This document shows, piece after piece, positions 13,950 through 39,738 of a stretch of 64,000 bases of DNA. The position numbers and the translations under genes are program-made. Position 1 is the first letter of the stretch; every line of letters begins with the position of its first letter. This stretch comes from Candidatus Latescibacterota bacterium (GTDB lineage Bacteria; Latescibacterota; UBA2968; GCA-2709665): the NCBI GenBank assembly GCA_965222075.1, contig OZ244937.1:3744001-3808000 (forward strand), given 5' to 3'. The notes beneath the pieces were generated by a model. That model made no database searches. It was given only the letters and a program-made list of their open reading frames with translations, and was not told where the DNA came from.

Positions 13950-15002
13950 ATGCAAACCCTCTCCCAACAGGTCAGCCGTCCCGTCTACGACGACCTCGGA
14001 GCGCCCGAACCGATCGAACCGATCTTCGCCGAAGGCACCGACCCCACGCTCGAAGACTGGCAGGACCGGCGCGCGGTCCTGAAAGAACGCTGGAACGCGG
14101 TCCTGGGCACCCCCTCCCTGGACATTTTCGACACGCGCCCGGAAATCATCAACACCTTCGAACAGCCTGCATACCGGGCCACCGTATTCAAACAGCCCAC
14201 CGGACCTGACACCCGCCAGACCCTTCTGCTCATGGAACCCGGGCAGGCGGCCCATTCCCCCCGTCCCGGTATGGTCGTCCCCTTCTACCACCCGGACCCG
14301 ATGGCCGGCATCGACCTGGACACGCAGGAGCCCATCGCCGAAGACCGAAATATCCAGTTCGGCCGCCACCTCGTGCAGCAGGGAAACGTGGTGGTCTGCA
14401 CCGAAGCCTTCCCGTTCAACACCGTACCCGAACCCGCAGACAACAAAAGCTTTTCCTGGTGGCAGGCCGCCGCAGACAAACTGCTGAAAGACCATCCCAA
14501 CTGGACCGGCATCGCCAAACTCGTCTGGGACGCCAGCCGGGCCGTCGACCTCCTGCTGGACCAGCCCGACATCGACCGGAAACGAATCGGCATCATGGGA
14601 CACTCCCTGGGCGGAAAAATCGCCTTCTACACCGGCGCGCTCGACGAACGCATCCAGGCCATTGTCGCCTCCGACTTCGGCATGGGGTTCAACTTCACCA
14701 ACTGGGATGCCCCCTGGTACCTGGGCGACCAGATCCACCGCCCCGACTTCACCCTTGCCCACCACCACCTCCTGGCCCTGCACGCCCCCCGGTCCTTCTT
14801 CCTCTTCGGCGGCGAAGCGGACCGCCCTGCAACCTGGCAGTACATCAACGAAGCCAAAAAAGTCTACGCCCTCTACGGCAAACCGGACGCCGTCGGCTTC
14901 TTCGACCACGCCTCCGGCCACCGCCCCACCGGTGAATCGTTGAAAATCGCCTACCGCTGGCTGGCGGAACGGTTCGGGCTGGCGGAACAGCCGTGGGAGT
15001 GA
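13950..15002 (+). CDS. Alpha/beta hydrolase (dienelactone hydrolase / acetylxylan esterase-like)
   Basis: GHSLGG nucleophile elbow, D..RAVDLL...PDID..RIG, G..D, GH; AAGGAG RBS before ATG 13950. Confidence 0.88.
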   Translation: MQTLSQQVSRPVYDDLGAPEPIEPIFAEGTDPTLEDWQDRRAVLKERWNAVLGTPSLDIFDTRPEIINTFEQPAYRATVFKQPTGPDTRQTLLLMEPGQAAHSPRPGMVVPFYHPDPMAGIDLDTQEPIAEDRNIQFGRHLVQQGNVVVCTEAFPFNTVPEPADNKSFSWWQAAADKLLKDHPNWTGIAKLVWDASRAVDLLLDQPDIDRKRIGIMGHSLGGKIAFYTGALDERIQAIVASDFGMGFNFTNWDAPWYLGDQIHRPDFTLAHHHLLALHAPRSFFLFGGEADRPATWQYINEAKKVYALYGKPDAVGFFDHASGHRPTGESLKIAYRWLAERFGLAEQPWE

Positions 15003-15048
15003 CCCCTCCCCCGGCCCCTCCCCGAAACGGGGAGGGGAGAGCGTGCTC

Positions 15049-15210
15049 CTAAGAGGGTTGGGAGGTAGAGCGTTTCTTCAGTTGGGCCACGATACGACTC
15101 AGAACACCTTCAAAATTCTGTCTTATATCTTCATTCTGGATTCGTATAACCTTCAAACCACGAGATGCAAGAATACCATCACGTTCTGCAACAATATTTC
15201 TCTTCCTCAT
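15049..15210 (-). pseudogene. DUF559 endonuclease with a 231-bp in-frame internal deletion
   Basis: Reads MRKRNIV|AERDGILASRG...; junction at 15190/15191 relative to the intact copy. Confidence 0.85.
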
Positions 15211-15381
15211 CCTACAACCGTCACCTCCTCCGCCTTTCTCCCCCTTTCCTCTCAGGAAAGGGGGCCGGGGGGATAGGTCACTCAGTCCGATGGCTGGCAG
15301 AACAGTTCGGGCTGGCGGAACAGCCGTGGGAGTGACCCCTCCCCCAGCCCCTCCCCGAAACGGGGAGGGGAGAGGGTGCTC

Positions 15382-15774
15382 CTAAGAGGGTTGGGAGGTA
15401 GAGCGTTTCTTCAGTTGGGCCACGATACCACTCAGAACACCTTCAAGATTCTGTCTTATATCTTCATTCTGGATTCGTATAACCTTCAAACCACGAGATG
15501 CAAGAATACCATCACGTTCTGCATCGTACTTGACCTGCTGATGATGAACACCGCCATCCACTTCGATCACCAATCCAGCAGCATGACAGTAGAAATCCAC
15601 AATAAATCCATCAATGACCTGCTGCCGACGAAAGTGAAACCCCTCCAGTCGATTGGCGCGAAGACGTTCCCAGAGAATGCCCTCTTCTTCCGTCATCTGA
15701 CCACGAAGCATTCTTGCCCGCTTCACCTTATCCAGATCCACTCTCTGCCCAATAACAATATTTCTCTTCCTCAT
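15382..15774 (-). CDS. DUF559 / Vsr-like endonuclease-domain protein, intact copy 1
   Basis: ARMLR..MT.EE..LWERLR, FRRQ..I..FIVDFYC....LVIEVDGGVH, D.ERD..L...G..VIRI.N; GGAGGTG RBS upstream. Confidence 0.92.
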   Translation of the reverse strand: MRKRNIVIGQRVDLDKVKRARMLRGQMTEEEGILWERLRANRLEGFHFRRQQVIDGFIVDFYCHAAGLVIEVDGGVHHQQVKYDAERDGILASRGLKVIRIQNEDIRQNLEGVLSGIVAQLKKRSTSQPS

Positions 15775-15945
15775 CCTACAACCGTCACCTCCTCCGCCTT
15801 TCTCCCCCTTTCCTCTCAGGAAAGGGGGCCGGGGGGATAGGTCACTCAGTCCGATGGCTGGCAGAACGGTTCGGGCTGGCGGAACAGCCGTGGGAGTGAC
15901 CCCTCCCCCAGCCCCTCCCCGAAACGGGGAGGGGAGAGGGTGCTC

Positions 15946-16338
15946 CTAAGAGGGTTGGAAGGTAGAGCGTTTCTTCAGTTGGGTCACGATACCACTCAGA
16001 ACACCTTCAAGATTCTGTCTTATATCTTCATTCTGGATTCGTATAACCTTCAAACCACGAGATGCAAGAATACCATCACGTTCTGCATCGTACTTGACCT
16101 GCTGATGATGAACACCGCCATCCACTTCGATCACCAATCCAGCAGCATGACAGTAGAAATCCACAATAAATCCATCAATAACCTGCTGCCGACGAAAGTG
16201 AAATGCCTCCAGTCGATTGGCGCGAAGACGTTCCCAGAGAATGCCCTCTTCTTCCGTCATCTGACCACGAAGCATTCTTGCCCGCTTCACCTTATCCAGA
16301 CCCACTTTCTGCCCAATAACGATATTTCTTCTCCTCAT
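15946..16338 (-). CDS. DUF559 / Vsr-like endonuclease-domain protein, intact copy 2
   Basis: Near-identical to 15382-15774, offset by 564 bp. Confidence 0.92.
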   Translation of the reverse strand: MRRRNIVIGQKVGLDKVKRARMLRGQMTEEEGILWERLRANRLEAFHFRRQQVIDGFIVDFYCHAAGLVIEVDGGVHHQQVKYDAERDGILASRGLKVIRIQNEDIRQNLEGVLSGIVTQLKKRSTFQPS

Positions 16339-16405
16339 CCTACACCCGTCACCTCCTCCGCCTTTCTCCCCCTTTCCTCTCAGGAAAGGGGGCCGGGGGG
16401 ATAGG

Positions 16406-18820
16406 TCACTCATACCGCAGCGCATCCACCGGATTCGCCAGTGCAGCCTTCATAGACTGGGCGCCCACCGTCAGAAGGGCGATCCCCAGCGCCAGAACGC
16501 CGCATAGGATGAAGATTTCCGGTCCGGGATCAATCCGATACGCAAAGTCCTGAAGCCATCTGTTCATCACATAGTAGGCAGCCGGCCAGGCCAGCAGATT
16601 GGCAACCACAACAAGCTTTGCAAATTCTCCGGAAAGCAGGAGAACGAGGTTGGATACTGAAGCCCCCAGCACCTTACGGATACCGACCTCCTTGGTTCGC
16701 CGCGTTACGGAGAGAGACGCCAGCCCAAGAAGTCCCAGACAGGAAATCAGGATCGCAAACAGAAAGGTGTACCCCGTAATTCTGATCCATCGGTCTTCAT
16801 TCTGGTACTGGCGAACGAGATTATCTTCGAGGAAGGAATACTGAAACGGCTGGTCCAACGCGACAGCCTCCCACGTCTTCTTCAGAAAGGCGATAGTGCC
16901 GGCAATGTCCTCGGGCTGGATCCGGATCAGTACGAAAGGCCCATACGACCGGGGTCCAGTGTGCAGCAGCAACGGCTGAATTCCCCTGTGCAGGGAATCG
17001 ATATGGAAATCCCTTACAACGCCGATGACGGTCAGTTCTCCCAACTTCTCCCAGTCCAGATTTTTCAGGGTCTTCCCGACGGGATCCTCCCATCCGAGCA
17101 TTCCGGCCAGCTTCTCATTCACAAGCGCGAACGATTGTGGATCGGACGGGGATGTCGGTGAGAAATTCCGTCCTGCAACAAGCTGGATCTTCAGGGTCTC
17201 AAGATAATCGGGATCTACCCGGATGACCCGAACCCTTAGACGCTCGCCGTCTTCTTTTTCCATGCCTATGCCTCTGGATCCGGTCGTAAACGCCCGGTCA
17301 CTGATGGTTGCGCTGACAACCCGAGGAGATTTGGAAACTTCCACTTTGTACCGTTCGCTGACAGCGTCTGAATTCGCCACCATGGCAGGAACAACCACCA
17401 CCTGTTCTTCACGGTACCCCAGATCCTTTTCTCTCAGGTAGTTGAGCTGTTGGACCATCATCGCGGCGCTGATCATCAGTGCGATCGACAGAGCATACTG
17501 CACAACCACCAGCGCACGCGTACCCACGTTTCGCCCCCCAATCCGCACCTGGCCTTTGAGCACCTCTACCGCGTGGAGCCGGGGCAGTACTACGGCCGGA
17601 TAACTGCCCGCCGCAAGTCCTGCAATGCCCACCAGCCCCAGAAGCATGAGCGTTGTTCCCCAACTGTCCAAATAGGAAATGCTCAAATTCTTGCGCGCCA
17701 GATCATTGAAGACGGGCAGAAACATCTCGGCCAGAGCGATTCCCATCACCAGGGCAAACATGCTTAAAAGCAACGCCTCGCCCCAGAACTGCTGCATAAG
17801 CTGCCTCCGCTGCGCTCCCAGCACTTTTCGCATTCCCACCTCTCGTGCGCGTCCCACGGACCGGCCGACCGCCAGAGTCATATAATTGATACACGCGATT
17901 GCAAGCACCAGAAGCGCAAGCCCGGAAAGCAAGTAGGAGTAGACCACGTTGCCATTGGCTTCGTACGAACTTCTGACCTCAGAATTCAGGTAAACGTCCC
18001 GCAGCGGCTGGAGGCGCAGCAAAAACCCGTCCTCTGCGTCCCTCACGTGACCGTGCGTTTTGAACAACCCGATCCTGTCTCCCAGGTGCTTCTCGGCAAA
18101 GGGCGGAAACACCGCTTCCAAAGCCTCCGCATCCTGTCCTTCCACAAGCTGCACGTACATAGAGGCATTCCCACCACCCCAATCCGTATTCACAGCATAA
18201 TACCTGTGGTGTTCAATCGGGATCAGAAGACCGAATTTCAGGCTGGAGGTCTCGGGAACGTCTCGCATCACCCCCGTGACGGTAAAGTCCTGAGCTCTAA
18301 ACGACAGCGGTTTCCCCAGAGCCGCAGCGTAACCGTCTTCCAAATTTCCAAAGAGCTTGCGCGCGACCGTCTCGCTGATCACCACACCATCCGGCTGGCG
18401 CAGGGCCGTCGCAGGGTCTCCCGCCAGGAGTGGGAAGGAGAATATCTCCAGAAAGTCCGCGTCCACCAGGCCGAAGGATTCCCGAAAGGCGATCTCCTGA
18501 TATGAAACCTGCGTCCTGGAGCGCATAAATCCGCTCGCCCGGATAACACCCGGAAACTCCTCCCGTAGCGCTGCCGCAAGAGAAGCAGGGTGAAGCGTGG
18601 AAAACCTGACACTGCCATCAGGCCTGGTCTCCCGTACAATCACCCGAAAAATCCGGTCAGAATTCTCGTGGAAGGCATCGTACTGCCATTCGTGCCGGAC
18701 GAACAGGAAGATCAGAATACAACACGCAAGGCCGACCGCCAGTCCAAACACGTTGATGAACGCATACAGCTTCTGCCGGAGCACGTTTCGCACAGCCACG
18801 ATCAGGTAGTTTCGGAACAT
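16406..18820 (-). CDS. MacB/FtsX-family ABC permease, paralogue 2
   Basis: MFRNYL, IACINY, RAREVGMRKVLGA, RTKEVGIRKVLGA, ends ANPVDALRYE. Confidence 0.95.
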   Translation of the reverse strand: MFRNYLIVAVRNVLRQKLYAFINVFGLAVGLACCILIFLFVRHEWQYDAFHENSDRIFRVIVRETRPDGSVRFSTLHPASLAAALREEFPGVIRASGFMRSRTQVSYQEIAFRESFGLVDADFLEIFSFPLLAGDPATALRQPDGVVISETVARKLFGNLEDGYAAALGKPLSFRAQDFTVTGVMRDVPETSSLKFGLLIPIEHHRYYAVNTDWGGGNASMYVQLVEGQDAEALEAVFPPFAEKHLGDRIGLFKTHGHVRDAEDGFLLRLQPLRDVYLNSEVRSSYEANGNVVYSYLLSGLALLVLAIACINYMTLAVGRSVGRAREVGMRKVLGAQRRQLMQQFWGEALLLSMFALVMGIALAEMFLPVFNDLARKNLSISYLDSWGTTLMLLGLVGIAGLAAGSYPAVVLPRLHAVEVLKGQVRIGGRNVGTRALVVVQYALSIALMISAAMMVQQLNYLREKDLGYREEQVVVVPAMVANSDAVSERYKVEVSKSPRVVSATISDRAFTTGSRGIGMEKEDGERLRVRVIRVDPDYLETLKIQLVAGRNFSPTSPSDPQSFALVNEKLAGMLGWEDPVGKTLKNLDWEKLGELTVIGVVRDFHIDSLHRGIQPLLLHTGPRSYGPFVLIRIQPEDIAGTIAFLKKTWEAVALDQPFQYSFLEDNLVRQYQNEDRWIRITGYTFLFAILISCLGLLGLASLSVTRRTKEVGIRKVLGASVSNLVLLLSGEFAKLVVVANLLAWPAAYYVMNRWLQDFAYRIDPGPEIFILCGVLALGIALLTVGAQSMKAALANPVDALRYE

Positions 18821-18875: not shown

Positions 18876-18966
18876 GCCAGAACACCGGAGAAAGGGTGGA
18901 TGGGTCCGCCTTTCTCCCCCTTTCCTCTCAGGAAAGGGGGCCGGGGGGATAGGTCACTCATACCGC
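18876..18966. repeat. Solo A arm; direct repeat of 19776-19866
   Basis: About 90 bp near-identical at a 900-bp offset; hairpin CCCCCTTTCCT-CTC-AGGAAAGGGGG at 18916-18940. Confidence 0.9.
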
Positions 18967-19006
18967 TGGCAGTCAGCGGTCAGGGCTCAGCGGAAATCGC
19001 TGCGTC

Positions 19007-19684
19007 TCACTCAGTTTGTTCATCCTTATCGATCCACCCGTCCAGCAGGTGAATCACCTTGCGACCATACGACGCGTTCTTCTCCGAATGCGTCGCCTGG
19101 ACAATCGTCGTCCCTCCCTGATTCAATTTCGTGAACAGCGCCATCACCTCTTCCCCCTGTGCCGAATTCAGATTCCCGGTCGGCTCATCGGCCAAGATCA
19201 GCTTCGGACTCGTGATCACCGCCCTGGCAACTGCCACGCGCTGCTGCTCCCCGCCGGAAAGCTGATTCGGAAACAGGTCTTTCTTCGCCACAATATTGAA
19301 CCGGTCCAGCATATCGCAAACCAGTCCCCTGCGCTCCGATCCCCTGACCTTCTTGTACAGCAGCGGCGTCTCCAGGTTCTCGTACACCGTCAACTCGTCA
19401 ATCAGGTGGTAACTCTGGAACACAAACCCGATATGGTGCTTGTGCAGATCCGTCCGCTTCCGCTCGTTCAACTTGTGCGTCGGTTCGTCGAAAAAGTAAT
19501 ACGCCCCATTCGACGGCTCATCGAGCATTCCCAGGATATGCAGCAGCGTGGACTTCCCGGCGCCCGACGGCCCCATAATCGAAACGAACTCCCCCTCCTC
19601 GATTTCAAGGTCGATATTCCTCAGCACGAAGGTCTTCACAAAACCCGTTGAGTAGTATTTCTCGATCTCTCGAAGCCGAATCAT
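19007..19684 (-). CDS. ABC ATP-binding protein (LolD/MacB-like)
   Basis: [36 protein letters not shown]; AAGGAGG RBS before ATG 19684. Confidence 0.95.
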
Positions 19685-19775: not shown

Positions 19776-19866
19776 GCCTGAACACCGGAGGAAGGGTGGA
19801 TGGGTCCGCCTTTCTCCCCCTTTCCTCTCAGGAAAGGGGGCCGGGGGGATAGGTCACTCATACCGC
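19776..19866. repeat. Solo A arm overlapping the stop codon of permease 3
   Basis: Hairpin at 19816-19840; GGTCACTCATACCGC contains the permease stop (19854-19856). Confidence 0.9.
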
Positions 19867-22226
19867 AGCGCATCCACCGGATTCGCCGTCGCCGCCCGGA
19901 TCGCCTGCACGCTCACGGTCAACAGTGCGACAAACAGGGCCAGCCCTCCGGACGCTGCAAATACCCACCAGCCGATGTCGATGCGATAGGCAAAATCCTG
20001 CAGCCAACGGTCCAGGATGTAATACGCGATTGGCGAAGCCACCACAAAGGCGATAAGCACCAGCCGGGCGAAGTCCCTGGACAACAGGAGCACAATATTC
20101 TCCACCGTCGCCCCCAGCACCTTCCGGATGCCGATCTCCTTCGTCCGCTGCTGGGCCGTAAAAGAAGCAAGCCCGAACAGCCCCAGGCAGGCAATGAAAA
20201 TGGCCAGTCCCGAAAAAACCTCGAACACCCGGGCCATGCGCTGCTCGCTCTCGTAAAGCCGCAGGTAGTCCCCCTCCAGAAAGGAATACGCGAAGGGCCG
20301 ATGGGGCGCGAACTTCTCCCAGACCTGCCGCACGGCAGAAACAGCATCGGCCACGTTGCCGGGCTGCAACCGGACGGCAACATAAGAACGGCCCCAGCGG
20401 AGAAACGGAAGCACCAGGGGTTGGACCCGGTGGCGGAGCGACCCGTAGTGGAAGTCCTCCACAACGCCGATGACCCTGCCTTCTCGGCCTGTCAGCCTCA
20501 TTCGCTTGCCGACCGGCTCTTCCCACCCGAGCGCCGAGGCGGCAGACTGGTTGATGAGAAACGCCGTGGAGTCCGAGGCGAAGTCTCCGGGAGCGAAGTT
20601 CCGACCCCGGACGACCCGCAACCCCAGCGCTTCGGTATAATGCTCGTCGACCATCACGTAGGTAAGTGAGGTCTCCTCGTAGTTGGCAGGCTGCTCAGGC
20701 ACGAACCGCGTGGAATCAAAGCGGTGGCCCGGCAGGCCCTCGGTAACCGAGGCCACAGCCACCTGCGCAAGCGCTCCGAGCCGCTCCCTGAATGCAGCAA
20801 CCTGCCTGCCCAGACTCCTGGCCCCATGCACCACAAGCACGTGTTCTTTATCGAACCCGAGCCGCTTGTGCTGCATATAGCGGAGTTGCTCGTGAACAAC
20901 CAGCGTGCCGATGAGCATTCCAATAGATATGCAGAACTGCGCCACAACCAGCCCGTTGCGCAGCCGGTCCCCGCCGAAGCGACCTGCAACACGTCCCCTG
21001 AGCACCTGCACAGGCCAGAAGGACGACAGGAAAAATGCCGGATACATCCCTGCCAGCACGGCCACCGCCGTCACAATTCCGCCCAGCGCCAGAACCGCGA
21101 ACGGCGAACTCAGGCTTCCGGTTGTCAGCTGTTTGCCGACAAAGCCGTTGAGGAACGGCAACCCCAGTTCGCTCAACCCCAGCGCCAGAACCACCGCCAG
21201 CGCCACATACAGCGACGACTCGACGAGAAACTGGCGAACGAGCTGCGCACGCTGGGAACCCAGAACTTTCCGAACACCCACCTCCCGGGCGCGGTTGGTC
21301 GAACGCGCTGTGGACAGGTTCACAAAATTGATACACGCCAAAAGCAGGATAAAGACGGCAACAAGAGAAAAAATATAAACGTTCAAAATATCGCCGGTCG
21401 GCTCCAGTTCCAACTCCAGATGCGAGTGCAGATGAATATCCGTCAACGGCTGCAACAGGAACCGGCTGTAGCCTCCTGCACGGGAAAAACGCTTCTCCAG
21501 TCCGCGACGCTCGACATGTTCCCGGAGCTTCGTCTCCACCCCGGACGCTTTTGTCCCCTCCCTCAAAACCACATACGTATAGACGGTGGCCGACCCCCAA
21601 CCCTTCTGTCGTCGTTCGACGATCGGAAGCGTTCTCAAAGGTGCGAGAAAATCGAAGTGAAAATGGGACTGGAGAGGAAACCCCCTCACCACGCCCGTGA
21701 CGCGCAGAAGCGTACCGTCGTTGAGTTCCAGCGGCTGTCCGAACGGGTCCTGGTCCCGGAAATACCGCCGCGCCGTCTCTTCCGTAATCACAACCGCATC
21801 CGGATCGCGCAGCGCCGTTTCCGGATCTCCCTCGACGAAGGGCGCGGTGAACACATCGAAAAAACCCTCCTCCACATAAAAAAAGTCACCTTCAATCACG
21901 TACTCCCGGCCGTGGCGCAGCGTCCGGCGCTCACGCCTCATACGCACCGTCCGCTCCACCTCCGGTAAATCCGCCAGCGCTTCAGCGACGGGAATAGGCC
22001 CTTTAGGAATCGTCCATTCATTGTCGCCGTAGCGAGCGTCCCACAGAACGCGATAGATCCGGTCCGCCTTTTCGTGGAACCGGTCGTAGCTCACCTCGTC
22101 CAGCACGAACAGCAGGATCAGGATGCAGCACGCCATCCCCACGGCCAGGCCCAGAATGTTGATGGCCGAATAGACCCGGTGCCGCAGCAAATTCCGCACC
22201 GCAACCTTCAGATCATTCTTAAACAT
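19854..22226 (-). CDS. MacB/FtsX-family ABC permease, paralogue 3
   Basis: LACINFVNLSTARS..RAREVGVRK, RTKEIGIRKVLGA, ends ANPVDALRYE. Confidence 0.95.
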   Translation of the reverse strand: MFKNDLKVAVRNLLRHRVYSAINILGLAVGMACCILILLFVLDEVSYDRFHEKADRIYRVLWDARYGDNEWTIPKGPIPVAEALADLPEVERTVRMRRERRTLRHGREYVIEGDFFYVEEGFFDVFTAPFVEGDPETALRDPDAVVITEETARRYFRDQDPFGQPLELNDGTLLRVTGVVRGFPLQSHFHFDFLAPLRTLPIVERRQKGWGSATVYTYVVLREGTKASGVETKLREHVERRGLEKRFSRAGGYSRFLLQPLTDIHLHSHLELELEPTGDILNVYIFSLVAVFILLLACINFVNLSTARSTNRAREVGVRKVLGSQRAQLVRQFLVESSLYVALAVVLALGLSELGLPFLNGFVGKQLTTGSLSSPFAVLALGGIVTAVAVLAGMYPAFFLSSFWPVQVLRGRVAGRFGGDRLRNGLVVAQFCISIGMLIGTLVVHEQLRYMQHKRLGFDKEHVLVVHGARSLGRQVAAFRERLGALAQVAVASVTEGLPGHRFDSTRFVPEQPANYEETSLTYVMVDEHYTEALGLRVVRGRNFAPGDFASDSTAFLINQSAASALGWEEPVGKRMRLTGREGRVIGVVEDFHYGSLRHRVQPLVLPFLRWGRSYVAVRLQPGNVADAVSAVRQVWEKFAPHRPFAYSFLEGDYLRLYESEQRMARVFEVFSGLAIFIACLGLFGLASFTAQQRTKEIGIRKVLGATVENIVLLLSRDFARLVLIAFVVASPIAYYILDRWLQDFAYRIDIGWWVFAASGGLALFVALLTVSVQAIRAATANPVDALRYE

Positions 22227-24355: not shown

Positions 24356-24976
24356 CTACAAACTCCCCGTCACCCCCAACCGCTCAACCTCTCCTCTCAA
24401 CCGATGCCGCCCCCGATACAGCCAGACCTTCAACGTTCCGACCGGCACCTGGAGCTCCTCCACAATCTCATGATAAGATCGTTCCCTTACATAATGCAAC
24501 CAGACCGCCTCGCGCTGCCGGTCCGGCAGCGCCTGGATGCTCTGCATCACAATCTCCCGGCGCTCCTTCCGCACCATCACGGCTTCGGGATCTTCGTGAG
24601 GCGCCGGGCGCCACCGCGCCTGAAGCGCGGGTACGGCATCGTCTACTTCATCCAGCCAATTTCTCTGCGTCCGCCGGGTCCGCAAATAGGATGTACACAC
24701 ATTCAGAGCAATGCGCGTCAGCCAGGTAGAGAAAGTGGCCTGCCCCCGAAAATTGGCCAGCCCCTGAAAGGCCTTCATAAAAACCATCTGGACCAGGTCC
24801 TCTGTCTCATCTCCCTTCCTTGTGCACCGATGCACAATCGCACGCACCCGGTCACGGTGCGTCCTGTAAAGAACTTCAAAAGCCCCGTCATCTCCCGCAA
24901 GCGCCCGATCGATCAGCGCCGCATCCGATTCAGGCGCACACTGCAATGTTTCAGGATCGTTTTTCTTTCCCCTCAC
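24356..24976 (-). CDS. ECF sigma-70 factor
   Basis: D..AF..LY, EDLVQ.VF.KA, FSTWL.RIA.N (region 2); LP.RQREA..L......SY.EI...L.VPVGT.K..L.RGR (region 4). GTG start at 24976 after GAGGGAG. Confidence 0.92.
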   Translation of the reverse strand: MRGKKNDPETLQCAPESDAALIDRALAGDDGAFEVLYRTHRDRVRAIVHRCTRKGDETEDLVQMVFMKAFQGLANFRGQATFSTWLTRIALNVCTSYLRTRRTQRNWLDEVDDAVPALQARWRPAPHEDPEAVMVRKERREIVMQSIQALPDRQREAVWLHYVRERSYHEIVEELQVPVGTLKVWLYRGRHRLRGEVERLGVTGSL

Positions 24977-25041
24977 AACAGAACTCCCTCGGTTTTCATA
25001 TCCCGGATGCCTGCAAAACACCGAACTTCTGTTCAGAAGAA

Positions 25042-25114: not shown

Positions 25115-25163
25115 CAAAAAAGTGTCCGCTGGCGATACACAAGTGTCCGCTAACGGACACTTC
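25115..25163. promoter_or_regulatory. Tandem palindromic enhancer (candidate bEBP UAS), copy 1
   Basis: AGTGTCCGCTGGCGATACAC-AAGTGTCCGCTAACGGACACTT; repeated at 35691-35739. Confidence 0.7.
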
Positions 25164-25192: not shown

Positions 25193-25890
25193 ACATCAAA
25201 CTCCCCGTCACCTCCTCCGCCTTTCTCCCCCTTTCCTCTCAGGAAAGGGGGCCGGGGGGATAGGTCACTCAGTCCGCTGGCTGGCAGAACAGTTCGGGCC
25301 GGCGGAACAGCCGTGGGAATGACCCCTCCCCCAGCCCCTCCCCGAAACGGGGAGGGGAGAGCGTGCTCCTAAGAGGGTTGGAAGGTAGTTGGCGCGAAGA
25401 CGTTCCCAGAGAATGCGCTCTTCTTCCGTCATCTGACCACGAAGCATTCTTGCCCGCTTCACCTTATCCGGATCCACTCTCTGCCCAATAACGATATTTC
25501 TCTTCCTCATCCTACACCCGTCACCTCCTCCGCCTTCCTCCCCCTTTCCTCTCAGGAAAGGGGGCCGGGGGGATAGGTCACTCAGTCCGCTGGCTGGCAG
25601 AACAGTTCGGGCCGGCGGAACAGCCGTGGGAATGACCCCTCCCCCAGCCCCTCCCCGAAACGGGGAGGGGAGAGGGTGCTCCTAAGAGGGTTGGCGAGAA
25701 GGCGTTCCCAGAGAATGCCCTCTTCTTCCGTCATCTGACCACGAAGCATTCTTGCCCGCTTCACCTTATCCAGGTCCACTCTCTGTCCAATAACGATATT
25801 TCTTTTACTCATCCTGCACCCCTCACCTCCCCCGCCTTTCTCCCCCTTTCCTCTCAGGAAAGGGGGCCGGGGGGATAGGTCACTCATACC
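25193..25890. mobile_element. Tandem array 2 of the DUF559 hairpin element (A-B-deleted gene-A-B-deleted gene-A)
   Basis: A hairpins at 25227, 25540, 25842; B hairpins at 25335, 25648; DUF559 remnants lack 251 and 262 bp. Confidence 0.85.
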
Positions 25891-28219
25891 TTAGCGCATC
25901 CACCGGGTTCGCCCGTGCCGCACGCATTGCCTGCGACCCTACCGCCAGCAGCACGATCGCCAGCATCAACACCCCACCCAAAACGAACGTCCCGACCCCC
26001 AGCTCAATCCGATACGCAAAATCCTGCAACCACCGCTCCATCGCATAATACGCCACCGGCCAGGCGATGACACTGGCAACAGCCACGAGCACGAGGAACT
26101 CCCTGGAAAGCAGGGACAGGATATTGGGAACCGTGGCGCCCAGCGCCTTCCGAATGCCGATCTCCTTCGTCCGCCGCGCCACCGCAAGCGCCGTCAGCCC
26201 GAACGCGCCGAGACAGGCGATGAAAACCGCGAACAGCGCGGAATACTGTACGATTCGGTTCCAGCGTTCCTCCTTCCTGTACTGCCGGTCCACCTCCTCG
26301 TCAAGAAAAGAATACTGAAACGGAAGGTCCGGTGCGACCTCCTGCCACTTCTCCTCCAAAAAGGCCAGCGTGCCCGGGATGTTCTCCGGGCGGATCCGGA
26401 TTAGCAATCGGGTAAACCCCGGACTGAGCCTCAACACCGCCGGCCCGATCTTGTGGTGCAGGGAGCGAAAATGGAAGTCCTGCACCACGCCGATCACAGT
26501 AATATCCCGCTTGTTCATCCGCAGCATCCTGCCCGCCACCGGCCTGTCCCACCCCAAACGCCGGACCAGGGCCTCGTTCACGATAATGGAAGCCCTGGAA
26601 TCCGTATTCCGTGTATCGAAATCCGCTCCCTCCAGGAGGGAGATATCCATCGTCTCCAGGAAGTCATAGCCGACAAAGACCATCTCAACACCCATTTCAT
26701 TCCCTTCATGCTCAATGCTGTTCCTGTACCTCGTCCTGCTGCTCAGCGCGTTGCTGGTCCCTGTCACGCCCAGAACCCCGTGGTGTCCCAGCAACTCGTT
26801 CCGGTACACCCCGGGTAGATCCGAATCTCGCTCCCGCAGGTCCCAAATATGGATGTACAGGACGTGATCACTCTCAAAGCCCAGCGGTTTTGTCCTCAGA
26901 TACTCAAGTTGCCGGGCCATCAGCAGCGCACTGACCACCAGGAAGACGGACAGGGCAAGCTGGAAAACCACAAGCGCCCGGCCGAACAGGCTGGACCCTC
27001 CGAGGCTGAGCCTTCTTTTCAACACCGCAACGGACTGAAACCCTGACAGTACGAAGGCCGGGTAGCTGCCTGCGGCCAGCCCGACGGCCAGCGCCAGTCC
27101 GAGCAAAAAGACCAGGCCCACGCCATCCGCCTGATCGGCCAGGGCGAGGTCCTGACCGGCCAGGCTGTTGAAGGCCGGCAGGAGGAGTTCCGCCAGAGCG
27201 ACCCCGGCCACCAGGGCCATCGCGCTCAACAGCATCGACTCTCCCAGGAACTGCTTCATCAGCTGCGTCCGAGACGCACCCACCACCTTGCGCATCCCCA
27301 CCTCCCGGGCGCGGGCGAACGACCGGCCCACAGCCAGAGTCATAAAGTTCACGCACGCAATCACCAGCACCAGCAGGGCAATTCCCAGAAGAATATAAGA
27401 AAAGGCCGGATTGCTCGCGGGTTTGGGTCCCCGGGTGCCCGGATTGAGATGCACCTCCAGGAGCGGCTGGAGGCCCATCCTGGCGTCCCGCTTTTCTCCC
27501 AGCCACATCTTTAACAACTCCGGAAACCGTTCCTCCAGATCGGCCGGACGTCTGTGCTCCGGAAGCAGCAGGTAGGTCTGGATATCTTCCTGGCTCCAGC
27601 CCCTGAGCTCACCCCCGGCCTCGAACGGAGCCAGAAAATCGAACCGGATGCTGGAGTTCTTCGGAACGGGCTTCGCAATCCCGGTCACAACAAAATCCCA
27701 AACCACCGGCGGGCGGCCCCATATCTCAACGGAAAGGACTTTGCCCAGGGGGTCTTTATCTCCAAAGTACTTCCGTGCCGCCGCCTCGGTGATCACCACA
27801 GAGTACGGACCTTCCAGCACCGTCGTCGGGTCTCCCTTCACCAGGGGAAAGGTGAACACCTCCAGGATGGCCGGATCGACAAAGCGGAAACTTTCTCGAA
27901 ACGACCGGTCCCCCTGCATAACAGAGAAAGAGCCCCAGCCAATCCTGACGCTCCGGACGTCCGGAAACGCCTCCGCCAGCGCCGGCCCCAGCGCGTCCGA
28001 CGTAACGCCCGACGGCTCGAACCCGGTATCATCCATATAGACCCTGTAGATCCGATCCGCGTTCTCGTGGAACGCGTCGTACGTCCACTCCCGCCGGACG
28101 AACAGAAACGTCAGCACACAAAACGCAATCCCGATCGAAAGACCCGTCACGTTGATAAAAGAATAGACCTTATGGCGCACCAGATTGCGAAACGCTACTT
28201 TCAGATAATTTCCGAGCAT
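25880..28219 (-). CDS. MacB/FtsX-family ABC permease, paralogue 4
   Basis: MLGNYLKVAFRNL, IACVNF, RAREVGMRK, RTKEIGIRK, ends ANPVDALRYE. Confidence 0.95.
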   Translation of the reverse strand: MLGNYLKVAFRNLVRHKVYSFINVTGLSIGIAFCVLTFLFVRREWTYDAFHENADRIYRVYMDDTGFEPSGVTSDALGPALAEAFPDVRSVRIGWGSFSVMQGDRSFRESFRFVDPAILEVFTFPLVKGDPTTVLEGPYSVVITEAAARKYFGDKDPLGKVLSVEIWGRPPVVWDFVVTGIAKPVPKNSSIRFDFLAPFEAGGELRGWSQEDIQTYLLLPEHRRPADLEERFPELLKMWLGEKRDARMGLQPLLEVHLNPGTRGPKPASNPAFSYILLGIALLVLVIACVNFMTLAVGRSFARAREVGMRKVVGASRTQLMKQFLGESMLLSAMALVAGVALAELLLPAFNSLAGQDLALADQADGVGLVFLLGLALAVGLAAGSYPAFVLSGFQSVAVLKRRLSLGGSSLFGRALVVFQLALSVFLVVSALLMARQLEYLRTKPLGFESDHVLYIHIWDLRERDSDLPGVYRNELLGHHGVLGVTGTSNALSSRTRYRNSIEHEGNEMGVEMVFVGYDFLETMDISLLEGADFDTRNTDSRASIIVNEALVRRLGWDRPVAGRMLRMNKRDITVIGVVQDFHFRSLHHKIGPAVLRLSPGFTRLLIRIRPENIPGTLAFLEEKWQEVAPDLPFQYSFLDEEVDRQYRKEERWNRIVQYSALFAVFIACLGAFGLTALAVARRTKEIGIRKALGATVPNILSLLSREFLVLVAVASVIAWPVAYYAMERWLQDFAYRIELGVGTFVLGGVLMLAIVLLAVGSQAMRAARANPVDALRYE

Positions 28220-28595
28220 ACGTCCCATCCCTCCAAAAGCGTGACTTGCAGAACCTCAGGACTTCATTCAGCCATTCGCCACCAGCCATCTCAGCTCATA
28301 GCCGGACACTTTCGTCCTGAGAAGCCGTTTTAAAATTCCCGGTGAGTTCCCGACACGCCCGCTCACGCGTCTCGCCTCTGGGATCCCCCCACCGGCGCGC
28401 CTGCGGGCTGGCGCCCCTAACTTGCCGACTCCTCCGGTTTGGTGTGAGAGGAAGGGGCTTTTCCGCGCAGATCCCCCCAGCACCTCCGCCCAAAAACGCC
28501 CAAAAGGTCCGCTGGGCACAAACGCCTGCTTACACCACAGGGGCAGTTCGCGGAAAAGCAGCCCCCGCGGCGTTTGAGCGGCGCCCTTCTTTTTC

Positions 28596-29534: not shown

Positions 29535-30538
29535 ACATCAAACTCCCCGTCACCTCCTCCGCCTTTCTCCCCCTTTCCTCTCAGGAAAGGGGGCCGGGGG
29601 GATAGGTCACTCAGTCCGCTGGCTGGCAAAACAGTTCGGGCCGGCGGAACAGCCGTGGGAATGACCCCTCCCCCAGCCCCTCCCCGAAACGGGGAGGGGA
29701 GAGCGTGCTCCTAAGAGGGTTGGAAGGTAGAACATTTCTTCAGTTGGGTCACGATACCACTCAGAACACCTTTTGGCGCGAAGACGTTCCCAGAGAATGC
29801 CCTCTTCTTCCGTCATCTGACCACGAAGCATTCTTGCCCGCTTCACCTTATCCAGATCCACTCTCTGCCCAATAACAATATTTCTCTTCCTCATCCTACA
29901 ACCGTCACCTCCTCCGCCTTTCTCCCCCTTTCCTCTCAGGAAAGGGGGCCGGGGGGATAGGTCACTCAGTCCGCTGGCTGGCAAAACAGTTCGGGCCGGC
30001 GGAACAGCCGTGGGAATGACCCCTCCCCCGGCCCCTCCCCGAAACGGGGAGGGGAGAGCGTGCTCCTAAGAGGGTTGGAAGGTAGAGCGTTTCTTCAGTT
30101 GGGTCACGATACCACTCAGAACACCTTCAAGATTCTGTCTTATATCTTCATTCTGGATTCGTATAACCTTCAAACCACGAGATGCAAGAATACCATCACG
30201 TTCTGCGTCGTATTTGACCTGCTGCTGATGAACACCGCCATCCACTTCGATTACCAATCCAGCAGCATGGCAGTAGAAATCCACAATAAATCCATCAATG
30301 ACCTGCTGCCGACGAAAGTGAAACCCCTCCAGCCGATTGGCGCGAAGACGTTCCCAGAGAATGCCCTCTTCTTCCGTCATCTGACCACGAAGCATTCTTG
30401 CCCGCTTCACCTTATCCAGATCCACTCTCTGCCCAATAACAATATTTCTCTTCCTCATCCTACAACCGTCACCTCCTCCGCCTTTCTCCCCCTTTCCTCT
30501 CAGGAAAGGGGGCCGGGGGGATAGGTCACTCATACCGC
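29535..30538. mobile_element. Tandem array 3 of the DUF559 hairpin element (A-B-deleted gene-A-B-intact gene-A)
   Basis: A hairpins at 29569, 29924, 30488; B hairpins at 29677, 30032; first gene copy lacks 209 bp. Confidence 0.85.
30066..30458 (-). CDS. DUF559 / Vsr-like endonuclease-domain protein, intact copy 3
   Basis: Near-identical to 15382-15774. Confidence 0.92.
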   Translation of the reverse strand: MRKRNIVIGQRVDLDKVKRARMLRGQMTEEEGILWERLRANRLEGFHFRRQQVIDGFIVDFYCHAAGLVIEVDGGVHQQQVKYDAERDGILASRGLKVIRIQNEDIRQNLEGVLSGIVTQLKKRSTFQPS

Positions 30539-32904
30539 AGCGCATCCACCGGATTCGCCCGCGCCGCCTTAACCGTCTGAAGGCTTACTGTTGCCAGTAC
30601 AACCGCCAACATCAGAACGCCCGACAGAGCAAAAGTGCTTATACCCAGCTCAATCCGATACGCAAAATCCTGCAACCATCGGTCCATCGCATAATACGCC
30701 ACCGGCCAGGCAATCACAGTAGCCACCGCGACCAGCAGAACGAACTCTCTGACAAACAGGGAGACAATGCTGGATACCGAAGCCCCCAGCGCCTTCCGGA
30801 TGCCAACCTCCTTGGTCCTGCGGGACACTGCCAGAGCCGTCAGTCCGAACGCGCCCAGACAGGCAATGAACACGGCAAAGAGGGTGGCGTAGCGCACGAT
30901 GCTGAACCACCGCTCTTCCTCGCGGTATTGACGGTCAACTTCCTCATCAAGAAAAGACAGGCGAAACGGCTTGTCCGGCAGCATTTCCTGCCATTTTTCT
31001 TTTAAAAAACGGAGCGTACCTGGCACATCCTCCGGGCGAATACGAATCATCAACTGCCCTCCAGGAAAAGTTGCCGGGAAAAGTTGCAACACAGCAGGTT
31101 CAATGGGATGATGGAGCGAGCGAAAATGAAAATCCCGGACGACCCCAATGACCGTCAGATCCTGTGCATACCGACCTGTGCCAACCCGTAGCGTCTTACC
31201 CAGAGGCGCTTGCCATCCCAATTTTTTAACCAGGGCCTCGTTAACGATCACAGATGTCTTTTTATCGCTATCTCGCTCAAATCTTCTGCCCGAGATCAGC
31301 GGAATACCCAGTGTTTCCAAAAAGTGTAGATCACACGCGAACAGCTCTATATATTTGAGGGTCTCACCCTCCCACGAAACTTCGGCCGGAGCCCGGGTCC
31401 CGTTCCTCAGCGTGTGTGGTGTTCTCGTGGCATTCAAAACAGCGTGGTGCGCCAGGACTGCCTCCTGGTAGGTCTTGGCCAGATCCGCTCCTTCCTGTCT
31501 TCCCTGTATCAAATTCCAAAGGTTGACCACCACAACCTCCTCCACCTCAATACCCAGCGGTTTTGTTCTCAGGTAATCCAACTGCCGGGTCATCATCAGC
31601 GTGCCTGCCACCAGGAAGGTAGCGATGGCGACCTGAAAAACCACCAGTGCGCGACTGATCAGGTTCATTCGACCCACCCCGGACCGGCCTTTAAGCGCCT
31701 CGACCGGCAAAATCCTGGACATCACAAAGGCCGGGTAACTGCCAGCGACGATGCCCACGAGCAAGGTCAATCCAAGTAGGAAACTCAGTGTGGTTACATC
31801 CGCCTCACCGGAAAGCGAAAAATCCTTGCCTGTCAGACTGTTAAAACCCGGCATGAGCATCTCCGCCAGCGCCAGTCCAAGTGCAAGCGAAATAACGGTC
31901 AACAGGACCGATTCCGACAGAAACTGCCTCGCCAGTTCCGTCCGCAGCCCTCCCACTACTTTGCGTATCCCAACCTCCCGGGCACGGGAAAATGACCGGC
32001 CCACCGCAAGGGTCGTATAATTCACACAGGCCACCGCCAGCACCAGCATCGCAATACCCGCCAGGATGTAAGAATAGACAGGATTGCTCCCGGATCTCAG
32101 GCCGTAGCGCTCCGAACCAAGGTGAACCTCTCTGAGCGGTTGCAATTTCAGCTGCCTGACGTATCGGTTTTCAGGCCACGCCTTCACAAGATCTGCAAAC
32201 TGTCTCTCGACTTCAGAAGGACTGAGATAATCTGGAAGCAGCATATATATGGAGACAAATCCGCCTAACATTCCCCATACTGCGCCAGTAGCCTCAATGG
32301 GTAGAGAAACTCAAAACGAATACTCGAGTTCTGGGGAATAGGCCTGATCACCCCGGCGACTGTCAAATCCTGGAACCCCGGACCGGGGCGCAACGGAGAC
32401 TGATTGATCTGAACGGAAAGCGTCTTACCAATCGGGTCTTCTTCTGGAAAGTATTTCTGGGCCATGGTCTCGGTGATGACCACATGGTGCGGATCCTTAA
32501 GCGCGGTGGCCGGATCACCTTTGACCAGAGGAAAGGAAAACACCTCTAAAATGGCCGGGTCTGCACAGTGAAAAAGTTCCCGGATCTCCTGATCTCCGTG
32601 TTGAACAAGGCCTCTATGCCGCGTTAATTCTGACAAAACGGGCATCCGGAAACGCCTCGGACAGCATCGGTCCCAATACGTCCGGCACCGCGGCCGACGG
32701 GCCGATCGGGTAACCATCCCGATAGACCCGGTAAATCCGATCCGCATTTTCGTGAAACGCATCGTAGGTCCACTCATTCCGAACAAACAGGAAAGCCAGC
32801 ACACAAAACGCAATCCCGATGGCCAGCCCGGAAATGTTGATGAGGGAGTAAATCTTGTGCCTCACCAGGTTCCGATACGCGACCTTCAGATAATTTTGGA
32901 ACAT
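30526..32904 (-). pseudogene. MacB/FtsX-family ABC permease, paralogue 5, with two frameshifts (about 32620 and 32270)
   Basis: Three overlapping ORFs (32614-32904, 32265-32813, 30526-32271) concatenate into one permease from MFQNYLK to ANPVDALRYE. Confidence 0.88.
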
Positions 32905-33425: not shown

Positions 33426-34781
33426 CTATTCCAGGAACTTCCTGAGTGTTATTGCAAGCGCATCACTCCGCAACTCTGGCCCCATAGCAACTATATAGCC
33501 AGTGTTGTTAATCAGAAAGGTGCTTGGATAGCCACGCACCTGGTATAGCCTCAGTAGTTCGTTTTCTTTCCCTACCTGAATATGGGTCCAATTCAGCCGC
33601 TTCTCCTGTACGTACTGCTGTAACTTCTGCCGATTATCAACCCCGACACTGACGATTCTGAGATCCTCATCCGTGTACGTCTCACGTGCCTCCTTCAGAA
33701 AGGGGATCTCGGCGATACATGGGCCACACCAGGTCCCCCAGAAGTCGAGTAGAATGTACCGGCCCTTCGCGTCCCCAAGCCGAAACACGACGGAATCAAG
33801 TGTTACAGCTTCGAAGCTTGGCGCTGCCATACCACGTTTGATGCGAGCAGCCACCTCTGCACCACTCTTCTGGAGAATGATCCTTCTCCCGAACTGGTCA
33901 ACGTAGGTCACTTCATATGTTTCGCCCTGAAGTTCAAAGGGGCTGTTCATTCTCTCAATGAAATCCGAAGATAGGGGATTCCAGGAGATATCGAACTTAC
34001 GATTGCCATTCTCATCAACCCAGAGATAGCTGTCCTTATTGTGCTCGATTCCGCGTCCGATCAAGGCAACCTCATAGCGTTCTTGCCCCAATACCAACTC
34101 ACCGATCATGATTCTTCTCAGTGCGCCTTCAGGAGTTACTCTCTGCTTGCCGAATACCTTTCTAAAACTTACCGGGAAGGGTTGAGTCTGAATACTTTGA
34201 CCGTCGAAGTATTCTACTTCAGCAATCGTCTCAATAATCTTCGTCTTCAGCTTGCTGAATAGACCGACCGGTTCCTCTCCTTCCCCATAGGTAAGCACTT
34301 CGTCATTTGTAAAGTCCTCATCATTGTTGGCGTCGCAGATCACGAACTCCTCGCCGTCCGCGTTTTCAATCGTGCAGAAAGAAACCACACAATCCACGTC
34401 TTGATCTGTGTATTTCGATTTCGCTTCATCAAACCACTCTTCGCCGAAGACCTCAATCACACGCTGATGGTCCTTCTTGCTCTTCTGCGCCAAGCTGTAG
34501 TAGTACTGGTGCTCTTGGATGCAAAGATGAAATGTCTCTTTAACTTTCCAGTTGTCAGGATAGCGTTCTATTCCTTCCTTCTCGGGAATCATCCTGCTCC
34601 CAGGCGACAAACGATTGCCTTTCCAGAGCATTACAATGCTGTCTGGATGAGTTGCGGTGAAGTCAACTGTGACCTCTCCCGCCAAAGGGTCTGCGTGTAC
34701 AGTGTGATTCAAAACGACCACAGCCACGAAGATCGTGGCTACAAGAGGTCTCAATACGGTCACGGCCACAAGGCTTTTCAT
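33426..34781 (-). CDS. Secreted protein with a C-terminal TlpA-like thioredoxin domain
   Basis: Signal peptide; AP.F, LLDFWGTWCGPC..E.P, V.GYPSTFLI...G.IV. Confidence 0.88.
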   Translation of the reverse strand: MKSLVAVTVLRPLVATIFVAVVVLNHTVHADPLAGEVTVDFTATHPDSIVMLWKGNRLSPGSRMIPEKEGIERYPDNWKVKETFHLCIQEHQYYYSLAQKSKKDHQRVIEVFGEEWFDEAKSKYTDQDVDCVVSFCTIENADGEEFVICDANNDEDFTNDEVLTYGEGEEPVGLFSKLKTKIIETIAEVEYFDGQSIQTQPFPVSFRKVFGKQRVTPEGALRRIMIGELVLGQERYEVALIGRGIEHNKDSYLWVDENGNRKFDISWNPLSSDFIERMNSPFELQGETYEVTYVDQFGRRIILQKSGAEVAARIKRGMAAPSFEAVTLDSVVFRLGDAKGRYILLDFWGTWCGPCIAEIPFLKEARETYTDEDLRIVSVGVDNRQKLQQYVQEKRLNWTHIQVGKENELLRLYQVRGYPSTFLINNTGYIVAMGPELRSDALAITLRKFLE

Positions 34782-34877
34782 TACTTAACCCTCCTTTGAG
34801 AAACGAGTACGATGGTGGGGAGAAGTGGGTTTTTCTCTTGCACGCTTTCACTGCCTCTGGGTGGTTGGGGCGATTTC

Positions 34878-34937
34878 CCCTAACGTTTCCGCCGTGCCCG
34901 AACCGCGCAGCGGTTGCGCGAAGCGGGCGTGTTATGC
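34878..34937 (-). other. attC-like site (solitary)
   Basis: Minus strand GCATAAC...GTTAGGG, 60 bp, with internal stem GCCCG..AACCGC-TGC-GCGGTT-CGGGC. Confidence 0.45.
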
Positions 34938-34979
34938 GGCGTTTCCTGGCCTCCTTTTCTCTTTCAAGTTTCGGCCAGT

Positions 34980-35508
34980 GAAGATCGCCCTTAAACCATT
35001 TGTAGTGAATATTGACCGTCTTGCCTATCGGGTTTTCATCGCCGAACAACCTGCGAGCCAGAGTCTGGGAGAGAAACGCAGTATGGGGATCGTTCAGCCC
35101 GGTTTTGGGATCGCCGACCACCATCGGAAGCGTAAAGATATCGAATACTTCTGCATCGGTTACGCAGACACGCGCATCGGAACCGCGATCCTCGTGAGAA
35201 GCCCACATACGTCTTACGAGCATCCGGGTCACTGCCTCAACTTCGGGGAATTTGCCGCGCAGATGCGGGGCGACCGGCTTCGTCCCCAAGTCATAGCGCT
35301 CGCCGCTGACATCCTGTAGTTTTCGGATTACTCTGTAAATGCGATCGCTCTTTTCGTGGTGCTGGTCAAACCGGAACTGATAACCCACGTACAAGACCGC
35401 CAACAACGCGCACCCAATCCCCACGGCCAACCCCAAGATATTCAACAGCGAATAGAATGTGTACCGACGCAGATTTCTCAATCCGGTCATGAGATAATTC
35501 CAAATCAT
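34980..35508 (-). pseudogene. MacB/FtsX-family ABC permease, paralogue 6, N-terminal about 175 aa only
   Basis: MIWNYL..GLRNL...SLLNILGLAVG...D..HE.SDRIYRV...FG.ENPIGK, then similarity is lost abruptly after WFKGDL. Confidence 0.85.
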
Positions 35509-39719: not shown

Positions 39720-39738
39720 CCACTCCCTCCTTCAATCT

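Follow-up and report, generated by a model that had tools for sequence, protein, structure and literature searches.

A 64-kb stretch of contig OZ244937.1 from Candidatus Latescibacterota bacterium (the window, over which arms, linkers and arrays were counted and in whose numbering positions are given) carries a short gene of the DUF559 family enclosed by two G-rich hairpin arms, A and B, and repeated in tandem at three places among host genes. A full unit measures 564 bp: after a linker of 46 nt come a B arm (about 52 nt), the gene (393 bp, on the minus strand) and an A arm of about 73 nt, within which the ribosome-binding region of the gene falls. Each arm folds as a G/C-rich hairpin, and A and B are imperfect inverted repeats of each other with the ends GAGTGACC...GGTCACTC. 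There are 11 copies of the A arm and seven of the B arm (0.00 expected for each, chance expectations for arms and linkers being taken from shuffled sequence), and a general arm pattern run over the 64 kb returned 18 arms plus one spurious match, with all true arms lying within 15–30.5 kb. Three DUF559 copies are intact (15382–15774, 15946–16338 and 30066–30458), four units carry different internal deletions (lengths 333, 313, 302 and 355 bp), and two A arms stand alone, at 18924 and 19824. Array 1 sits between an alpha/beta hydrolase gene and a permease gene of the MacB/FtsX type. In arrays 2 and 3 an A arm stands at either end, the closing one directly adjoining the stop codon of a paralogous permease gene; by Pfam, the left neighbours of these arrays are unrelated, namely a sigma factor gene and a DUF4097 gene, respectively. 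The features are listed below; the ends of the elements are not fixable to single-base precision.

13950–15002, plus strand: alpha/beta hydrolase (esterase-like) gene, 350 aa, with Pfam GCE_fung, AXE1 and DLH matches
14952–14999, plus strand: native hydrolase tail ("linker 0"), TACCGC at 14952–14957 followed by the 41-nt linker core
14997–15283, minus strand: unit 1a, with B arm, DUF559 gene with a 231-bp internal deletion, and A arm
15284–15329, plus strand: linker copy 1, 46 nt, junction TCAGTCCGA
15330–15847, minus strand: unit 1b, with B arm 15330–15381, intact DUF559 gene 15382–15774 (130 aa) and A arm 15775–15847; PF04480 match, hairpins
15848–15893, plus strand: linker copy 2
15894–16411, minus strand: unit 1c, with B arm, intact DUF559 gene 15946–16338, and A arm ending GGTCACTC at 16404–16411
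16406–18820, minus strand: MacB/FtsX-type permease gene, its last codons (..LRYE*) overlapping the arm end; TACCGC at 16413–16418
18876–18960, plus strand: solo A arm with an extra 5' hairpin extension
18961–19006, plus strand: TACCGC, then a possible decayed linker, ending at the stop of an ABC ATPase gene
19776–19860, plus strand: solo A arm abutting the stop of the permease gene 19854–22226
25194–25885, plus strand: array 2, an A arm followed by two linker and deleted-gene units
25271–25316, plus strand: linker of the first repeat of array 2, followed by a deleted-gene unit, period 313
25584–25629, plus strand: linker of the second repeat of array 2, followed by a deleted-gene unit (302) that ends at the stop of the permease gene 25880–28228
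29536–30531, plus strand: array 3, an A arm, a deleted-gene unit and a full unit
29613–29658, plus strand: linker of the first repeat of array 3, followed by a deleted-gene unit (355)
29968–30013, plus strand: linker of the second repeat of array 3, followed by a full unit with intact DUF559 gene 30066–30458 (minus strand) that ends at the stop of the permease gene 30526–32271

The linker derives from the hydrolase gene's own 3' end

The 41-nt core of the linker has seven plus-strand copies in the window, at 14958, 15291, 15855, 25278, 25591, 29620 and 29975 (0.00 expected). The copy at 14958 is the hydrolase gene's own end and the other six are linker copies. The translated linker, RWLAE[Q/R]FG[L/P]AEQPWE*, matches the hydrolase tail; AEQF, the family consensus, is found in four of six linker copies, AERF in one and AKQF in two, and the hydrolase gene itself reads AERF. 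A homologue search with the hydrolase gave 311 relatives, and among the best 120 of these the tail motif WLxEx[F/L/A], typically AYRWLAEQFGLPEQPWEL, is present in 112. The tail AYRWLAEQFGL..PWEL is thus conserved across several phyla, with named bearers in Armatimonadota, Planctomycetota, Verrucomicrobiota, Latescibacterota, Poribacteria and Kiritimatiellaeota, so that it is native to the hydrolase.

Contigs of assembled genomes were scanned with the DUF559 protein as query, which yielded 80 loci in other genomes (L001 and onwards), the basis of all counts over 80 given here. The linker is present at one of them, L001, and is therefore not native to the element. Both results bear on an earlier note, made from the letters of this DNA alone, which had identified the linker as the last 15 or so codons of the hydrolase gene, had located its recurrences and had asked whether hydrolase orthologues carry the tail: they do, and the linker is the hydrolase 3' end at each of those sites.

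The hydrolase gene of the window differs from its relatives at the very last position. Of the best 120 homologues listed, 81 end 15 residues past the W of the WL pair; the window protein and a 99%-identical relative end after 14, and these two are the only ones that are one codon short. The stop codon TGA (15000–15002) lies inside the arm end GAGTGACC, and the gene has lost exactly its last codon.

Array borders, internal junctions and the TACCGC hexamer

The hexamer TACCGC stands at 14952–14957 and at 16413–16418, that is, at the two outer borders of array 1, where the earlier note had placed it. The two sites are in register: if the internal deletion is taken into account, the distance between them is an integral number of unit lengths, as duplication through that repeat predicts. 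In both genes the hexamer is native: it encodes Tyr-Arg in the hydrolase and, read on the opposite strand, Arg-Tyr in the permease. We considered TACCGC as a target-site duplication and rejected this, as the downstream hydrolase sequence is native coding sequence; as native codons of both host genes, the hexamer did not arise by duplication upon insertion.

The six internal junctions all have the sequence GGTCACTCAGTCCG[A/C]TGGC, with A in two (array 1) and C in four (arrays 2 and 3), and they match TACCGC at three or four of its six positions. Within a unit conserved at 92–99% elsewhere, the junction varies most. The earlier note had also derived the junction that recombination between the two border sites would produce, and this sequence, GGTCACTCATACCGCTGGC, is present exactly at 18952–18970, with an intact TACCGC at 18961; its reading of the other junctions was likewise accurate. 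Over the 40 nt behind the 18952 junction there is a colinear match to the hydrolase tail, with about 65% identity. Anchored and aligned globally, this stretch had a score that 3 of 5000 shuffles reached; with the first TGGC left out, the score was reached by 33–39 of 5000 shuffles and by 109–191 of 25396 window segments. Statistically the support is marginal to moderate, and the stretch may be an old copy of the original junction followed by a decayed linker.

Host flanks travel with the cassette and arrays exchange sequence

The permease side of the arrays carries a similar trace. Four permease paralogues have an A arm directly behind their stop codon, and their last 11 codons are identical at 28–32 of 33 nt (85–97%) as against 59–74% in the preceding 50 codons. 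A fifth paralogue (11255), which has no arm, uses other synonymous codons and another stop. With the permease tail homogenised over its last 11 codons, the repeated tract takes in about the final 30 nt of the permease gene, in the manner of a conversion tract. In a Gemmatimonas locus (L002) the same A arm stands right after the ..LRYE* of an 805-aa permease that is 43% identical to that of the window.

The strongest evidence that host flank is carried along comes from L001, the best of the 80 loci, which lies in a Latescibacterota metagenome-assembled genome (MAG) and encodes a DUF559 protein 92% identical to that of the window. Its first part consists of a 36-nt permease-tail fragment, an A arm, a unit with nearly the whole gene deleted and a shortened linker; next come an intact gene between an A arm and a B arm, then a full linker and the first 16–25 nt of another arm. 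Homology with the window is limited to L001 3736–4507. The flanking genes encode a 735-aa esterase-like protein and a leucine-rich-repeat protein, and beyond that stretch L001 has nothing in common with the window. A composite with scraps of both host genes of array 1 thus sits in unrelated surroundings, which indicates that it was derived from a locus of the array 1 type.

Within the window, units are 95–99% identical to each other, far above the surrounding paralogues, and linkers are identical inside each array and different between arrays. The right halves of the units group as 1a, 1b, 3a and 3b versus 1c, 2a, 2b and L001. That left and right halves group differently indicates recent copying and recombination between arrays, and from this mosaic pattern of single-nucleotide polymorphisms (SNPs) it follows that exchange between arrays happens.

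Several further features of the permeases and arms were noted. The permease gene behind array 3 (30526–32813) is split into a 581-aa open reading frame (ORF) with an FtsX domain and a 182-aa ORF with a MacB periplasmic domain, and is probably frameshifted or disrupted. At 34666–35538, a 291-aa ORF with the MacB periplasmic domain only adjoins an AhpC/TSA-thioredoxin-like gene (33429–34781) and may be a truncated or fused permease relative. In an Acetothermia MAG (L062 3850–4450) the neighbours of a DUF559 cassette are an ABC ATPase gene on one side and a permease gene on the other, and in the Gemmatimonas MAG (L044 383–450) a second cassette copy lies immediately upstream of a permease gene, which suggests a recurrent tie of the cassette to MacB/Lol-type transporter clusters. 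The two solo A arms of the window are 98% identical across 91 nt and share a 5' extension (18876–18905 and 19776–19805; ..GGAGRAAGGGTGGATGGGTCCGCCTTTCTCC) that could form a second hairpin. Three of the four gene deletions (units 2a, 2b and 3a, with deletion junctions at 25389, 25690 and 29773) have a near-common right endpoint, TTGGCG[C/A]GAAG, and different left endpoints, and look like nested deletions from a fixed point.

The DUF559 protein and its arms in other genomes

The 130-aa protein of the window matched PF04480 with an E value of 2.1e-35 and 121.3 bits (cut-off 20.6). Its only other Pfam match, to MTES_1575, was sub-threshold, and among NCBIfam models the generic DUF559 model PRK09767 alone was found, below its cut-off. 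Residues D55, D60, E71, D73, H77 and N103 are invariant in 28 DUF559 sequences from several phyla. A phmmer search of PDB sequences recovered 3hrl only (E 7.2e-21), the homing enzyme 3r3p not being recovered at E up to 1. When a predicted model of the protein (pLDDT 82.8) was compared with solved structures by Foldseek, 3hrl, a DUF559 structure, was found at E 7.8e-9 and the second-best solved match was the catalytic domain of I-Bth0305I (3r3p; E 2.3e-4, probability 1.00, TM 0.76), with 1vsr at E 0.1. Based on this model, the protein is predicted to have a Vsr-like catalytic fold. VSR, DUF559 and 3r3p are placed in one cluster in a passage of PMC3424549.

The arms belong with DUF559 genes far beyond the window. 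Across the 80 loci, which come from Latescibacterota, Cyanobacteria, Chloroflexota, Gemmatimonadota, Poribacteria, Bipolaricaulota and others, an arm lies beside the DUF559 gene in 70, and arm-end tags occur at 6.0 per kb up to 200 nt from the gene versus 0.115 per kb beyond 1 kb, a difference of about 52-fold. Arm segments of some 40 nt are 85–97% identical to the window arms across phyla, and the proteins are about 50–70% identical. A perfect stem of at least 8 bp was found in 200 of 284 tagged arms compared with 24 of 1417 control segments, and the 48 distinct stems are all of the same pyrimidine/purine type, so that pairing is kept by compensatory change. Tandem arm and linker arrays, whose arm content we judged by eye from consensus units, adjoin the DUF559 gene in 15 of the 80 loci, with periods of 32–476 bp.

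Four to seven tandem arm and linker units stand beside the DUF559 gene in other Latescibacterota and Anaerolineales genomes (L004 4360–4716, L014 4385–5502, L027 2801–3987 and L053 4409–4782), and in L004 the end of the DUF559 gene, its last bases together with its stop codon, is part of the repeated unit. An Rfam scan of the whole window at gathering thresholds gave no match, so the arms fall in no curated RNA family. Canonical intrinsic terminators were ruled out as an explanation of the arms by a terminator and promoter scan of 14800–16600, which returned 0 of each. Literature searches, with subscription journals outside their coverage, found no description of arms or palindromes linked to DUF559; among the papers listed by a full-text search for DUF559, none has the name in its title or abstract, and strings of the arm motif gave unrelated primer matches only.

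A model for the origin and spread of the arrays

The explanation that we favour, with a probability of roughly 0.55 for the account as a whole, is that the element is a small selfish cassette, a gene for a DUF559 (Vsr-like) nuclease between two G-rich hairpin arms, whose arrays began with microhomology duplication or with template switching and developed further through recombination or gene conversion at the arms, possibly stimulated by the nuclease. The starting state would be a single cassette between two convergent host genes, those of the hydrolase and the MacB-type permease. An illegitimate event at or very near TACCGC, either an unequal exchange or template switching in repair synthesis, would have joined the A-arm side to the hydrolase tail and so produced a head-to-tail duplication with a unit enclosing the last 46 nt of the hydrolase gene. 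The array would then grow and shrink via recombination between units, and units would be copied to other A arms behind paralogous permeases by homology-dependent repair. Gene conversion or synthesis-dependent annealing between arms would be the route of this repair, and it would drag the last 30 or so nucleotides of the permease gene along. From the fold of the protein, its conservation and its linkage to arms across phyla, we infer that cuts or nicks that the DUF559 nuclease would make at the arms stimulate these events, in the manner of homing or of systems of repetitive extragenic palindromes (REPs) and REP-associated tyrosine transposases (RAYTs). Shown by the sequences are the source of the linker, the flanks that travel with it, the exchange among arrays and the tie of arms to DUF559 genes across the family; the microhomology step, the part of the nuclease and the lack of a circle are inferred.

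Several observations speak against this account. No cleavage activity, target site or empty site was observed, and the nuclease might be no more than a passenger, in which case replication slippage at hairpins would have made the arrays. TACCGC occurs in none of the six internal junctions, which read GTCCGC four times and GTCCGA twice, and the two junctions of L001 differ again, being TCAGCTTGCTGGCTGG and TGCTAGCTGGCGG (also given as TCAGCTTGC and TGCTAGC). Since no junction keeps the hexamer, the microhomology step needs later changes, or the junction arose elsewhere; the 6-bp core that the earlier note proposed as the joining site is partly supported, being in register at the borders of array 1 but absent, in intact form, from the internal junctions; one intact copy stands at 18961, beside a possible relic linker. 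In a free local alignment, the match of 18967–19010 to the linker is not significant (153–260 of 2000 shuffles reach it). Finally, 12 extra bases that no model here explains, ACATCAAACTCC, are common to the A arms at the left ends of arrays 2 and 3 (25194–25205 and 29536–29547). These 12 bases are missing from internal units, and the genes to the left of the two arrays are unrelated.

Much of the remainder of the earlier note is borne out, including a unit of about 564 bp (the start-to-start period of full units is a constant 564 bp), host flank carried with it (the linker and the permease-tail fragment in a non-homologous place in L001) and, as far as the form of the arrays goes, reinsertion at other A arms, given that arrays 2 and 3 start and end at such arms. 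The note also reads the junction as circle-like. In the circle model, the 564-bp unit would be excised by recombination between the TACCGC sites and re-enter, singly or as a concatemer, by recombination with resident A arms, and would resemble an IS26 translocatable unit. Arrays 2 and 3 have the right form for this, an A arm followed by two repeats of linker, B arm, gene and A arm, and the hexamers at both borders of array 1 and the constant period agree with it as well. We nevertheless regard a circle as quite improbable, given that the 55 ORFs scanned include no recombinase or transposase, that the junctions read GTCCGM and not TACCGC, and that the permease tail, which lies outside the proposed circle, is also homogenised and is carried in L001, which fits conversion tracts better. 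Nothing in the sequence calls for a circle, as duplication or template switching with recombination at the arms gives identical products. Passive repeat dynamics, which we consider unlikely, would treat the arms as REP-like structural or regulatory palindromes and the arrays as products of slippage and unequal crossing-over at hairpins, with the DUF559 protein only linked to them. Gene-less arm arrays with short linkers near DUF559 genes (periods of 41, 71 and 73 bp in L053, L004 and L058) and the maintenance of the stems by compensatory changes speak for this, yet it leaves aside the roughly 52-fold enrichment of arms beside DUF559 genes in several phyla and the strong constraint on a protein with a complete set of invariant acidic and His residues. 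The arms are, moreover, not terminator-like (0 sites in 14800–16600), and a composite at the unrelated flanks of L001 needs more than local slippage.

Two other explanations can be set aside with more assurance. Segmental duplication of whole transporter loci would be suggested by the position of the arrays behind paralogous permeases of one gene cluster, but the adjoining permeases are 59–74% identical versus 95–99% for the units, and arrays 2 and 3 have unrelated genes on their left. An assembly artefact that made the repeated linkers is contradicted by four distinct internal deletions and by SNPs, unlike a collapsed or inflated repeat, and the presence of the composite in a second genome goes against both. 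The divergence contrast and the distinct deletions thus effectively exclude segmental duplication and assembly error, to which we assign a very small probability. Smaller still, close to nil, is the chance that the linker is native to the element and that the hydrolase acquired its C-terminus from it. The hydrolase stop codon in the arm end and the gene directly abutting the B arm would be expected in that case, but the tail is kept in 112 of 120 homologues of several phyla and the linker is missing from 79 of 80 DUF559 loci, on which grounds we rejected it.

If the favoured model of a duplicated and arm-converted cassette is extended to the family, this DUF559 subfamily might supply the nuclease for a class of selfish DNA that is widespread in Latescibacterota, Cyanobacteria, Chloroflexota, Gemmatimonadota and others and has gone undescribed. 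Together with its G-rich hairpin arms, the gene would make up a REPtron-like or homing-like module, able to multiply itself and derivatives that lack the gene through repair that the nuclease triggers at the arms; the captured hydrolase and permease tails would be tracers of this process. We offer this extension tentatively, at somewhat less than even odds. DUF559 is a very large family with no assigned role: one search gave 1217 relatives at E <= 1e-20 among 1320 candidates, and 95–98% identical DUF559 proteins are encoded on chromosomes of 5.2–5.5 Mb in close relatives. The two host-gene scraps act as natural tracers of a DUF559 cassette with hairpin arms that was copied as a block, within a genome and, in a second one, into unrelated surroundings, pointing to copying by homology at the arms and not to precise cut-and-paste. 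Together with the link between arms and gene across phyla, the tracers lead to the testable idea that DUF559 proteins act on these palindromes. If true, this would provide a PD-(D/E)XK-type counterpart to REP/RAYT systems and homing endonucleases and would account for a class of G-rich repeats that is common in the genomes of Cyanobacteria and Chloroflexota. Should the nuclease play no role, the locus would still be a clean case of microhomology duplication and ectopic conversion, of an ordinary kind.

Relation to known mobile elements

One likeness is to REPtrons, in which REPs or bacterial interspersed mosaic elements (BIMEs) accompany a RAYT gene (features as set out in PMC2817692, PMC3337134 and PMC3733652). 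As in these, one small gene lies between inverted palindromic repeats, solo copies stand at gene ends, tandem repeat clusters have short linkers, and stems are kept by compensatory change. The combination that characterizes a REPtron, a gene flanked by inverted palindromic repeats with solo or clustered copies elsewhere, is found here in two solo arms of the window, in arms at 70 of 80 loci and in arrays at 15 of 80. In contrast to the Y1 HUH transposase RAYT, however, the gene product is a PD-(D/E)XK-type nuclease, the Vsr-like DUF559 protein; the G-rich arms have a GGTC/GACC end where REPs carry GTAG/CGTC tags; and in the window the repeated unit includes the gene, which is present in several copies.

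A second likeness is to free-standing homing endonuclease genes, above all those of the Vsr-like EDxHD family, described for I-Bth0305I in a passage of PMC3239194. The predicted DUF559 model shares their Vsr-like nuclease fold (3r3p), and the cassette seems to have been copied into related sites behind conserved gene ends, with host flank travelling along much as in co-conversion of homing genes, of which the homogenised permease tails and the flanks carried in L001 are indirect signs. Unlike the EDxHD enzymes, the 130-aa window protein consists of the DUF559 domain only and has no NUMOD or helix-turn-helix DNA-binding region, and 3r3p is not found by sequence at E up to 1. Homing genes also differ in that the cassette is in neither an intron nor an intein, that no empty target site was seen, and that hairpin arms bracket the cassette, which homing genes are not known to have.

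An IS26 translocatable unit consists of one repeat copy and adjacent DNA that is added beside another copy of the repeat, giving rise to head-to-tail arrays. The addition of a unit beside a repeat copy and the resulting head-to-tail arrays are alike here; the shared repeat, however, is a 70-nt hairpin arm, no DDE transposase is encoded among the 55 ORFs, and the circle is a proposal only. Microhomology-mediated tandem duplication and template switching are general mechanisms, and the same 6-mer in register at the outer array borders and the constant period conform to them, whereas the new junctions lack an intact 6-mer. We also considered a transposon with terminal inverted repeats (TIRs) or a miniature inverted-repeat transposable element (MITE), for which inverted ends are present but the sole border direct repeat, TACCGC, consists of native codons, and an integron cassette, for which no integrase was found in the window ORFs scanned. 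More generally, the Pfam scan of these 55 ORFs gave no transposase, integrase or recombinase match.

Other repeats in the window

Three further repeats were noted. A 47-nt repeat, 96% identical between its copies at 25117–25163 and 35693–35739, contains palindromic parts of the type GTGTCCGC..GCGGACAC; one copy lies upstream of an ECF-type sigma factor gene (24356–25021), and the repeat may be a regulatory site. Periodic repeats of 96–99 nt at 39082–40286 are the coding sequence of ankyrin-repeat proteins (Pfam Ank families). An 84-nt direct repeat, 88% identical, occurs at 49727–49810 and 52194–52277, 2.5 kb apart, near a PIN-domain gene (50782–51381).

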